From NCBI RefSeq assembly GCF_003334255.1, contig NZ_QOWU01000073.1: 18,664 nt of DNA; one strand, 5' to 3'. Below, one piece after another: positions 1-985 of this stretch. The notes beneath the pieces were generated by a model. It did not search any database. It was not told the origin of the DNA and worked only from the letters and a program-made list of their open reading frames with translations. This DNA is from Escherichia coli. Lineage in GTDB: Bacteria; Pseudomonadota; Gammaproteobacteria; Enterobacterales; Enterobacteriaceae. How positions within the stretch are numbered: the first letter of the stretch is position 1; each line of letters opens with the position of its first letter. Position numbers and translations under genes: made by a program.

Positions 1-117
1 TCTCAGTGGGCGGCAATAGGCGTGCTGGGGAGTCTGCTGTTTGGGCTGCTGACATATCTGACTAACCTGTATTTCAAAATCAGAGAGGACCGTCGTAAGG
101 CAGCGCGGGGAGAGTAA
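1..117 (+). CDS. S: Holin, class II pinholin-like, C-terminal fragment (5' end outside window)
   Basis: Frame open from base 1 to TAA at 115-117, translating ...[38 protein letters not shown]: hydrophobic TM segment then charged tail. From memory this closely matches the C-terminus of phage 21 S21 pinholin. Sits upstream of a SAR endolysin. Confidence 0.65.
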
Positions 118-121
118 GGCG

Positions 122-652
122 ATGAATAAACAATACAAACTGGTTGTTAAAGGGATAAATAATTACCCGGATAAGATTACTGTTACTGTGGCACTGGAAA
201 TTGGTGGGTATCCGTCACTGTTGTTGCCATATGTGGCGATTAGTCTTGACCGTACTGAAGGTGCCACGCTGGAGTTTTACGAAGCTGAGGCGAAAAAACA
301 GGCGAAGCAGTTTTTCATGGATATTGCTGCCGCTTTATGTGAAGGGGATGAGCAGTCGCCGGAAAAGCGCCCCATAATTTTAGAGGCGCAGGATGTGTTG
401 ATAACCTACAGAGGAAAACTACCGGGAATAATTACGGGTTCTCTGAAGACGCCACCGACGGCATTGCGGTCAGAAAACGATGATATTGAATCACGCATTG
501 AAAAACTGGAGTGCTATATCGCTGAATTGAAAAAAAGCACCCCAACAAAAAATGAGGTGCTTGCAGCAGATGAAATGAAAGAAACTATTCTTGATCGCGC
601 GGCGCATCTAAGCTGCGCTTCACTGTTGAAAGAGCATCTTCAGCAGCCTTGA
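122..652 (+). CDS. Hypothetical protein, 176 aa, no recognised motif; inserted between holin and endolysin
   Basis: ATG at 122 lies 4 nt after the holin stop, with purine-rich GGGGAGAG a few nt upstream. No signal peptide or TM segment. AT-richer than the structural genes. Confidence 0.5.
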   Translation: MNKQYKLVVKGINNYPDKITVTVALEIGGYPSLLLPYVAISLDRTEGATLEFYEAEAKKQAKQFFMDIAAALCEGDEQSPEKRPIILEAQDVLITYRGKLPGIITGSLKTPPTALRSENDDIESRIEKLECYIAELKKSTPTKNEVLAADEMKETILDRAAHLSCASLLKEHLQQP

Positions 653-860
653 GGAATCTTTTATCATCACGAGCAACTGTCTTTGGTATTTCTTTAATTA
701 GATGTTCCATTTCGGCGATCAGGTAATCTGACACAGCGTTATTTTTACTTAGTGCATCCATTGCTTTGATTATCTTTGGGAGAAGAACACCGACCTGTAA
801 CTCAAGAGTAAAAATTCTGTCAAAAAGTGCTGTATTCTCTTTGCTATTTTCTTCACTCAT
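585..860 (-). CDS. Hypothetical protein, 91 aa, minus strand, antisense to late transcription
   Basis: Minus-strand ATG (plus 858-860) is preceded by AGGAA with 5-nt spacing. AT-rich. Its 3' end overlaps the 3' end of ORF 122..652 by 68 bp. Confidence 0.5.
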   Translation of the reverse strand: MSEENSKENTALFDRIFTLELQVGVLLPKIIKAMDALSKNNAVSDYLIAEMEHLIKEIPKTVARDDKRFLKAAEDALSTVKRSLDAPRDQE

Positions 861-985
861 ATCTGTTCCTTATCTTTGCGAGGCAGCCATCTCGCATTGT
901 TGAGTTTACGCTAGTGCCCACCACTGGCGGGCTGAAGACTTAACATATCCAGGGATTCGGAACCGATAAATCCTGATAAATATCC

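Follow-up and report, generated by a model that had tools for sequence, protein, structure and literature searches.

In the Qin prophage of Escherichia coli K-12, where the gene order is essQ-ydfR-rrrQ, ydfR, a gene of the DUF1327 family, is flanked by genes for a class II holin and an endolysin. This is the closest described relative of the locus reported here: the spacer between S, a class II holin gene, and R, a signal-arrest-release (SAR) endolysin gene, at the start of an 18,664-nt stretch of E. coli DNA (contig NZ_QOWU01000073.1 of assembly GCF_003334255.1; the whole stretch is hereafter called the window). The spacer carries ydfR, a plus-strand open reading frame (ORF) of 176 amino acids (aa), and then a 91-aa ORF on the minus strand, orf91. 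Other described systems share parts of this layout. Pore-forming colicin operons combine a colicin gene, an immunity gene on the opposite strand and a lysis gene, and their immunity proteins are inner-membrane proteins. Phage lambda makes OOP, a non-coding RNA antisense to the 3′ end of cII, and carries bor, one of the accessory genes known as morons. For DUF1327, our literature search found only a 2026 paper that ties K-12 YdfR to RNase E: two-hybrid and co-purification assays show its first 72 residues binding to residues 1-597, the N-terminal half of RNase E, and RNA co-purifies with the protein (PMC13232886).

We find that the convergent arrangement of orf91 with the C-terminal ∼60 residues of YdfR (the tail) is repeated in distant phages and that both reading frames are under purifying selection. 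In the window the two ORFs overlap at their 3′ ends by 68 nt (585-652), which was not remarked in the initial annotation of this DNA, made from the sequence alone. That annotation had proposed a lysis cassette split by a two-gene insertion of no recognizable motifs. Its ORF coordinates, sizes and ribosome-binding sites (RBSs) are confirmed, as is the holin-endolysin separation of about 870 bp (868 bp as measured, 118-985), and the recurrence of the pair supports its treatment of the two ORFs as a module. Its premise that pinholin and endolysin genes are normally adjacent does not apply. With DNA queries against 5426 complete E. coli genomes, the S21-type holin gene was found at 8831 places in 2435 genomes and the ydfR N-terminal domain at 6131 places in 2876, more than half; a DUF1327 gene flanked by class II holin and endolysin genes is seen in the window, E. 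coli G1/2, H-19B, loci L006-L010 (L numbers are our locus labels) and Qin. ydfR is a standard late gene at this position, and the spacer is not a simple two-gene insertion into an otherwise adjacent pair. Nor is the 176-aa protein without motifs: its first 112 residues match model positions 1-92 of 93 of the DUF1327 family (E = 8e-41), PHROG 2091 matches it along its full length, and in RefSeq the gene is labelled “YdfR family protein”. For orf91 the lack of Pfam or NCBIfam matches stands. As in Qin, the endolysin gene is near-identical (R is 90% identical to K-12 RrrQ). Unlike the window protein, to which it is 43% identical over residues 1-74, the portion reported as binding RNase E, K-12 YdfR has 103 aa, lacks an ILDWAAxL tail, overlaps the start of rrrQ and has no minus-strand partner.

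Homologues of orf91 occur in eight sequence-distinct settings, from E. coli, Citrobacter and metagenomic or viral contigs, and in all eight a convergent ORF on the late strand faces them (Table 1). The partner carries the tail motif in seven of the eight settings, and in six of those seven the 3′ ends overlap, by 20 to 86 nt. orf91 is antisense to late genes in every context found, and all contexts are lambdoid late regions near lysis or terminase genes; in L012 the homologue lies between the spanin and terminase genes, which we take to be the position of bor in lambda. Neither the convergent orf91-ydfR pair nor its leader is described in the literature that we searched, and that search likewise returned nothing on an antisense gene in this lysis cassette.

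The tail is a coiled coil terminating in ...ILDRAAHL in the window, the family motif being ILDWAAxL. It is fused to YdfR-like N-terminal domains in L011, L019 and L026, is joined in frame to three different classes of such domain, and stands alone as an ORF of 51-57 aa with its own Shine–Dalgarno (SD) sequence in L004, L012 and L033-37, the SD of L004 being strong (GGGAGG-N6-ATG). In an hhalign comparison the L011 partner matches both domains of the YdfR profile (probability 84%, E = 7.5e-6), and the L011 and L019 proteins have N-terminal domain and tail in common. We computed the ratio of nonsynonymous to synonymous substitution rates (dN/dS) over the 28-codon motif segment for ten pairs, in the tail frame and in the three antisense frames. 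The tail-frame ratio is 0.15-0.37 in eight of the ten pairs (0.58 and 0.73 in the other two) and falls below all three antisense frames in most pairs. The L019 overlap is merely 20 nt and VLNWAARL is retained there, with VLNW outside the orf91 ORF, so that conservation of the tail is not a mere by-product of orf91 coding. The conserved part of the tail protein lies opposite the variable end of orf91, and vice versa. Together, the recurrent convergent tail ORFs, the domains shared by L011 and L019 and the dN/dS ratios argue that the tail is a real coding module, and that the unit moving between phages is the tail plus orf91.

Compared with homologues of 50-90% identity, the minus-strand partner has dN/dS of 0.08-0.27, its synonymous sites being almost saturated, and is therefore a coding gene. 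It is rare: orf91-specific DNA (query 655-905) is found at 50 places in 45 of the 5426 genomes, with full coverage in 29 of the 45, and protein searches gave 32 relatives, nine representatives among 1.8 billion clustered proteins and none in a scan of one genome per species. PHROG 18136, of unknown function, matches it (E = 4e-52); it is otherwise annotated only as hypothetical. Homologues at 28-70% protein identity occur in other genera and contexts. Judged from its sequence, orf91 is a real, rare, self-contained gene under purifying selection, and the two genes look like a real accessory pair, not a chance insertion.

The moron-like character suggested for the minus-strand gene at the outset is borne out by its rarity, its own leader and terminator, and its constant antisense orientation. 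Like lambda bor and other morons, orf91 is small, lies beside lysis genes opposite to late transcription, has its own terminator, is present or absent among similar phages (45 genomes versus 2435 with the same holin) and occupies varied positions in the late region. Unlike them, it encodes neither a lipoprotein nor a membrane protein, and its promoter is putative. It further differs in being consistently tied to a convergent, usually overlapping late-strand ORF, which to our knowledge is no feature of known morons. What is new at this locus is the pair, a moron-like accessory unit tied to a late-gene tail; ydfR and its position were already known.

An alternative that we consider unlikely, though one to be taken seriously, is that the two are unrelated neighbours: orf91 would be a single-gene moron (serving, for example, lysogenic conversion or exclusion) and the tail a hitch-hiking flank that is read as an ORF or has been fused accidentally. 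Consistent with this, the slot between ydfR and R takes other cargo (orf86, or a 233-aa minus-strand ORF) or nothing, and in L015 the tail is frameshifted beside an intact orf91. The final ∼13 residues of the window YdfR differ from one context to another and face the conserved helix at the orf91 C-terminus, and the tail overlaps the orf91 terminator, constraining that DNA whatever its coding. Against it speak the stand-alone tail ORFs with their own start codon and strong SD, as in L004, the motif kept outside the orf91 ORF in L019, the lowest dN/dS in the tail frame for most pairs, and the in-frame joins to three N-terminal domain classes. Because convergent tail-motif ORFs face orf91 homologues, we reject for the motif-bearing part the view that the whole tail is ydfR reading on by accident into the antisense strand of an inserted moron, and retain it only for the last ∼13 residues.

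The control signals of orf91 are likewise its own. An intrinsic terminator, which the first look at this DNA had passed over, was found by a terminator scan (fold −16.2 kcal/mol, z = −3.2), and its hairpin recurs 3′ of the homologues in L004, L005, L011 and L019, where compensating stem changes keep the pairing (GCACC/GGTGC, GCGTC/GACGC and GCGCC/GGCGC). Upstream of the gene lies a leader conserved among homologues whose proteins are only 28-70% identical, which includes a GAGG...CCUC pairing besides the elements of Table 1. In its proposed structure 99% of cells pair, whereas shuffled alignments give 93.5% (a value as high came up once in 500), and sliding the pairing partners lowers pairing to 18-47%. 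Three pairs of the leader hairpin change on both sides, in only two sequences, so these double changes may be a single event. When sequences are folded singly, L004 and L012 form CAGCC:GGCUG with CCUC paired to the SD; the window and L019 form GAGG:CCUC and leave the SD free. The leader looks like a translational switch and is a candidate new cis-regulatory RNA; it is absent from Rfam, a scan of 1-2700 giving three chance-level hits (E > 0.5) of which none lies at 861-940. The AUG in its GAUGGCUG box opens a 6-codon upstream ORF (MAASQR) whose stop falls within the orf91 SD; elsewhere in the family the AUG either shares the frame of the main ORF or opens an upstream ORF that ends at or over the main start codon. 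Further upstream is a putative promoter with 7 of 12 matches in a manual scan. In its −10-like element (TAnnnT at 947-942) the T, A and final T are invariant in all aligned homologues, and L019 has TAGCGT at equal spacing before TTCAGCC. The same stretch, 942..975, doubles as the conserved 5′ flank of R.

We tentatively favor the reading in which the spacer holds a conserved, mobile, convergent pair within a pinholin/SAR-endolysin cassette, the orf91 protein or its antisense RNA tuning or neutralizing the YdfR tail. ydfR would be read from the Q-dependent late transcript along with S and R, and homology to the K-12 protein suggests that its N-terminal domain probably makes contact with RNA or with the catalytic half of RNase E. 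orf91 would be transcribed from its own signals, against late transcription, and for that reason its expression probably falls chiefly in periods without late transcription, that of the lysogen or of early infection. The orf91 leader probably gates translation by sequestering or freeing the SD, and the protein, or the antisense RNA, would then counteract or tune the late-made tail. An antagonist or immunity-like relation between orf91 and the tail is our best guess. It would resemble pore-forming colicin operons, where an induced effector, a small opposite-strand gene with its own signals and a lysis gene are similarly laid out; we take this match of layout as a lead only. Unlike colicin immunity proteins, the orf91 product is predicted to be soluble, the sequences resemble neither colicins nor colicin immunity proteins, and we know of no toxicity of YdfR. 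The arrangement also resembles lambda OOP and cII, in that a short convergent transcript (here predicted) would end in the 3′ coding part of the opposite gene, with scope for RNase-dependent control; this likeness too is no more than a lead, and unlike OOP, orf91 encodes a conserved protein.

Several observations weigh against this favored reading. E. coli lineages readily lose one partner of the pair: besides the L015 tail frameshift, the C-terminus of orf91 is locally frameshifted in L016, at least 14 complete E. coli genomes have a 100-bp deletion in orf91, and YdfR proteins of 211 and 305 aa keep the ILDRAA motif facing only a 23-36-codon orf91 remnant. The orf91 family is small, so that few sequences, and short ones, underlie the covariation and dN/dS figures; the eighth pairing (L021) depends on a partner with weak similarity only. 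The promoter call is weak, as a stricter scan found nothing on the minus strand in 861-985. The lack of a transmembrane segment in orf91 sets it apart from the immunity proteins of pore-forming colicins, and over-production of K-12 YdfR altered few transcripts (PMC13232886).

YdfR and orf91 might instead modulate lysis timing, tuning the pinholin/SAR-endolysin pathway or the envelope through a protein or through antisense RNA that reduces leaky R in lysogens; we regard this as improbable. The pair is always in or beside the lysis cassette, ydfR lies between holin and endolysin genes and translationally close to S, and the predicted orf91 transcript is fully complementary to the late mRNA just 5′ of R. 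A screen cited by the RNase E paper flagged K-12 ydfR for envelope integrity (PMC13232886). However, neither protein has a transmembrane segment or signal peptide, the pair is also found 3′ of spanin genes by terminase and among glycosyltransferase genes, and orf91 is missing from most phages with the same S and R. Position by itself says little, because the stretch from Q to terminase attracts accessory genes in general. A role for either protein as antiholin or holin-like regulator found no support from transmembrane domains or from holin-family matches in PHROG, Pfam or NCBIfam.

The initial annotation had also raised a defence or toxin-antitoxin-like module, and we hold a prophage element for defence, counter-defence or toxin-antitoxin-like action to be quite improbable. 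Both proteins are small, acidic and helical, the orientation and rarity of orf91 are typical of prophage accessory genes, and in other phages the slot is taken by orf86, likewise a small acidic minus-strand gene but unrelated to orf91. The orf91 product is predicted to be soluble and mildly acidic (isoelectric point 5.2), with a peak 19-residue hydropathy of 1.37; its AlphaFold2 (AF2) model is mainly helical, with four long helices and one short, at low confidence (predicted local distance difference test, pLDDT, 59). Yet no PADLOC model matched the pair (best E-values 0.005 and 0.026, not significant), there is no Pfam or NCBIfam match to a toxin, antitoxin or defence protein, orf91 has no significant match in Pfam, NCBIfam, PADLOC or a PDB sequence search, an enzymatic motif is absent, and the genes run towards each other, whereas those of type II toxin-antitoxin pairs are co-directional and co-transcribed. 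Finally, we give next to no credence to the 91-aa ORF being a chance ORF in an AT-rich spacer, despite its lack of annotated function or domain match and its low-confidence model: the selection analysis refutes this in practice, and the diverged homologues in other genera and contexts and the conserved RBS, leader and terminator also count against it.

Comparison of related prophages, as the initial annotation had advised, shows that the S-R slot is a mosaic that holds other cargo or none (Table 1). YdfR proteins of 103, 114, 148, 176, 183, 211, 296 and 305 aa have the N-terminal domain in common and differ in their tails; H-19B and most Shiga-toxin phages have a 114-aa ydfR in an S-R gap of ∼400 bp. 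The 114-aa form of H-19B joins the regions of the two copies of an 8-nt direct repeat (443-450 and 932-939), which marks the boundary of short versus long ydfR; the repeat is short and may be chance. orf86 overlaps a different YdfR tail (…RRDEQFAAFYDYC…SLQ) by 53 nt, has an upstream hairpin region adjoining R in common with orf91 and then diverges, and is far commoner, with one cluster on at least 999 contigs. That the two are diverged alleles of one family is ruled out (hhalign probability 0.3%). The 233-aa minus-strand ORF, a candidate gene, overlaps the 305-aa YdfR form by ∼250 nt in its tail and has no Pfam, PHROG or PADLOC match. Not every long YdfR tail has an antisense partner, for the 296-aa form directly adjoins R. 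The 100-bp deletion form of orf91 lacks the start codon and ∼30 codons, and was recognized by coverage of 65% of the query in two pieces over 151 bp; it matches a 13-nt direct repeat (770-782 and 870-882) with a spacing of 100 nt.

The AF2 model of the window YdfR has an overall pLDDT of 59 and is reasonably confident for residues 1-73 only, where residues 5-73 form three strands and one helix (pLDDT ∼61-88 per 10-residue block). Neither this model nor that of orf91 had a Foldseek match at E ≤ 0.001. A similarity of YdfR to double-stranded-RNA-binding domains rested on a few chance-level Foldseek hits and was not used. RefSeq flags ydfR beside orf91 as a pseudogene (“missing C-terminus”) in L015 (E. 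coli 2013C-4974) and in L003 (E. coli G1/2), although the 176-aa ORF of G1/2 is intact; its annotation model appears to expect another ydfR tail.

In the surrounding cassette, the holin gene fragment matches PHROG holin families (phrog_9876, E = 2e-20), and the same gene in E. coli G1/2, of 71 aa, is labelled “class II holin family protein”. Direct reading of R shows an N-terminal hydrophobic SAR stretch and E-x8-D-x5-T spacing. The segment had been described as AT-richer than its flanks; in 200-nt windows this holds for its right-hand part (GC 0.395-0.425 over 401-1000, with 0.535-0.56 inside R, 1001-1500) and fails for 1-400 (0.45-0.50). A second spacer lies between R and Rz (1520-2160), with a strong plus-strand terminator-like hairpin of 15 pairs at 1610-1642 that leads into a T-run. 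Beyond it lie several small hydrophobic ORFs, e.g. 1812-1943 (43 aa), annotated only as “hypothetical” in E. coli G1/2. Rz starts at ∼2162, with Rz1 embedded at 2382-2567.

Table 1. Features of the S-R region of the window, minus-strand ORFs in the same slot of other prophages, settings of orf91 homologues with their late-strand partners, and contents of the S-R slot
Feature	Position	Strand	Description
Class II (S21-type, pinholin-like) holin gene S, 3′ end	1..117	+	Clipped by window start; stop TAA 115-117
ydfR, 176-aa ORF	122-652	+	RBS GGAGAGTAAGGCG ahead of ATG; stop codon 650-652
ydfR N-terminal domain, residues 1-112	122..457	+	DUF1327 (Pfam PF07041)
ydfR tail module, residues 113-176	458..652	+	Coiled coil, KKSTPTKNEVL segment, motif DEMKETILDRAAHLS
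8-nt direct repeat CTGAAGAC	443..450 (left copy), 932-939 (right copy)	+	
Intrinsic terminator of orf91	528..562	-	Hairpin 562-535 inside ydfR ORF, T-run to ∼528
orf91, 91-aa ORF	585-860	-	RBS/SD AAGGAA, 5 nt upstream of ATG
Conserved orf91 leader	861..934	-	From alignments of 6-8 diverged homologues
Leader CAGCC	934-930	-	Invariant
Leader 8-bp hairpin	929-922 pairing with 916-909	-	Covarying
Leader GCGAG	895-891	-	
Leader GAUGGCUG box	891-884	-	Invariant; AUG at 890-888 inside
Leader CUCGC	882-878	-	
Leader SD AAGGAA	871-866	-	
Putative orf91 promoter region	942..975	-	−10-like TATGTT 947-942; inverted repeat 975-969 and 957-950; −35 weak
SAR endolysin gene R, 177 aa	986..1519	+	PHROG 7 endolysin, E = 3e-62
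orf86	L001 3704-3964, L006 2979-3239	-	Acidic, 86 aa; PhiR5_1 and other E. coli prophages
233-aa minus-strand ORF	L009 3167-3868, L017 815-1516	-	Fills 511-bp “empty” gap before R
orf91 setting: window type (E. coli)	Between S and R		Partner YdfR 176 aa, tail ...DEMKETILDRAAHLS; overlap 68 nt
orf91 setting: L026			Partner YdfR of other N-terminal domain class, same tail; overlap 68 nt
orf91 setting: L004 (Citrobacter)	Immediately upstream of holin gene		Stand-alone 57-aa ORF, ...ILDWASCLS; overlap 68 nt
orf91 setting: L033-37 and L005	L033: among glycosyltransferase genes, endolysin-terminase interval		Stand-alone 51-aa ORF, ...ILDWAAGL; no overlap, stops offset; L005 a frameshifted remnant
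orf91 setting: L011			144-aa YdfR-like protein, ...ILSWAARLN; overlap 47 nt
orf91 setting: L012-14	L012: between spanin and terminase genes		Stand-alone 55-aa ORF, ...ALDWAASVS; overlap 86 nt
orf91 setting: L019-20	L019: immediately upstream of holin gene		245-aa YdfR-like protein, ...VLNWAARLK; overlap 20 nt
orf91 setting: L021-22	L021: upstream of methylase-holin block		61-aa ORF, weakly similar; overlap 20 nt
S-R slot: H-19B			Short ydfR only
S-R slot: L038			296-aa ydfR abutting R
S-R slot: PhiR5_1, L006			ydfR with different tail and overlapping unrelated 86-aa minus-strand orf86 (PHROG 2572)
S-R slot: L009, L017			305-aa ydfR, tail overlapped by 233-aa minus-strand ORF
S-R slot: window, L003			ydfR-176 and orf91 (window type)

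A bolder extension of the favored reading, to which we give little credence at present, is that long YdfR proteins are late effectors with a shared N-terminal domain that binds RNase E or RNA and with swappable tails, and that orf91 is a lysogen-made antagonist of the ILDWAAxL tail under a CAGCC/GAUGGCUG riboregulator. If true, phage lysis cassettes would contain an effector-immunity logic like that of colicins, and orf86, together with the other YdfR tail that it overlaps, would be another example. ydfR, set in the middle of the lysis cassette, is among the most widespread E. coli prophage genes of unknown role, Shiga-toxin phages included, and its K-12 form is now tied to RNase E. A conserved tail with a dedicated antisense gene offers a concrete genetic handle, which may reveal what YdfR does late in infection. 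Even without further outcome, the idea of a “split” cassette is corrected: the arrangement is normal for this phage lineage.

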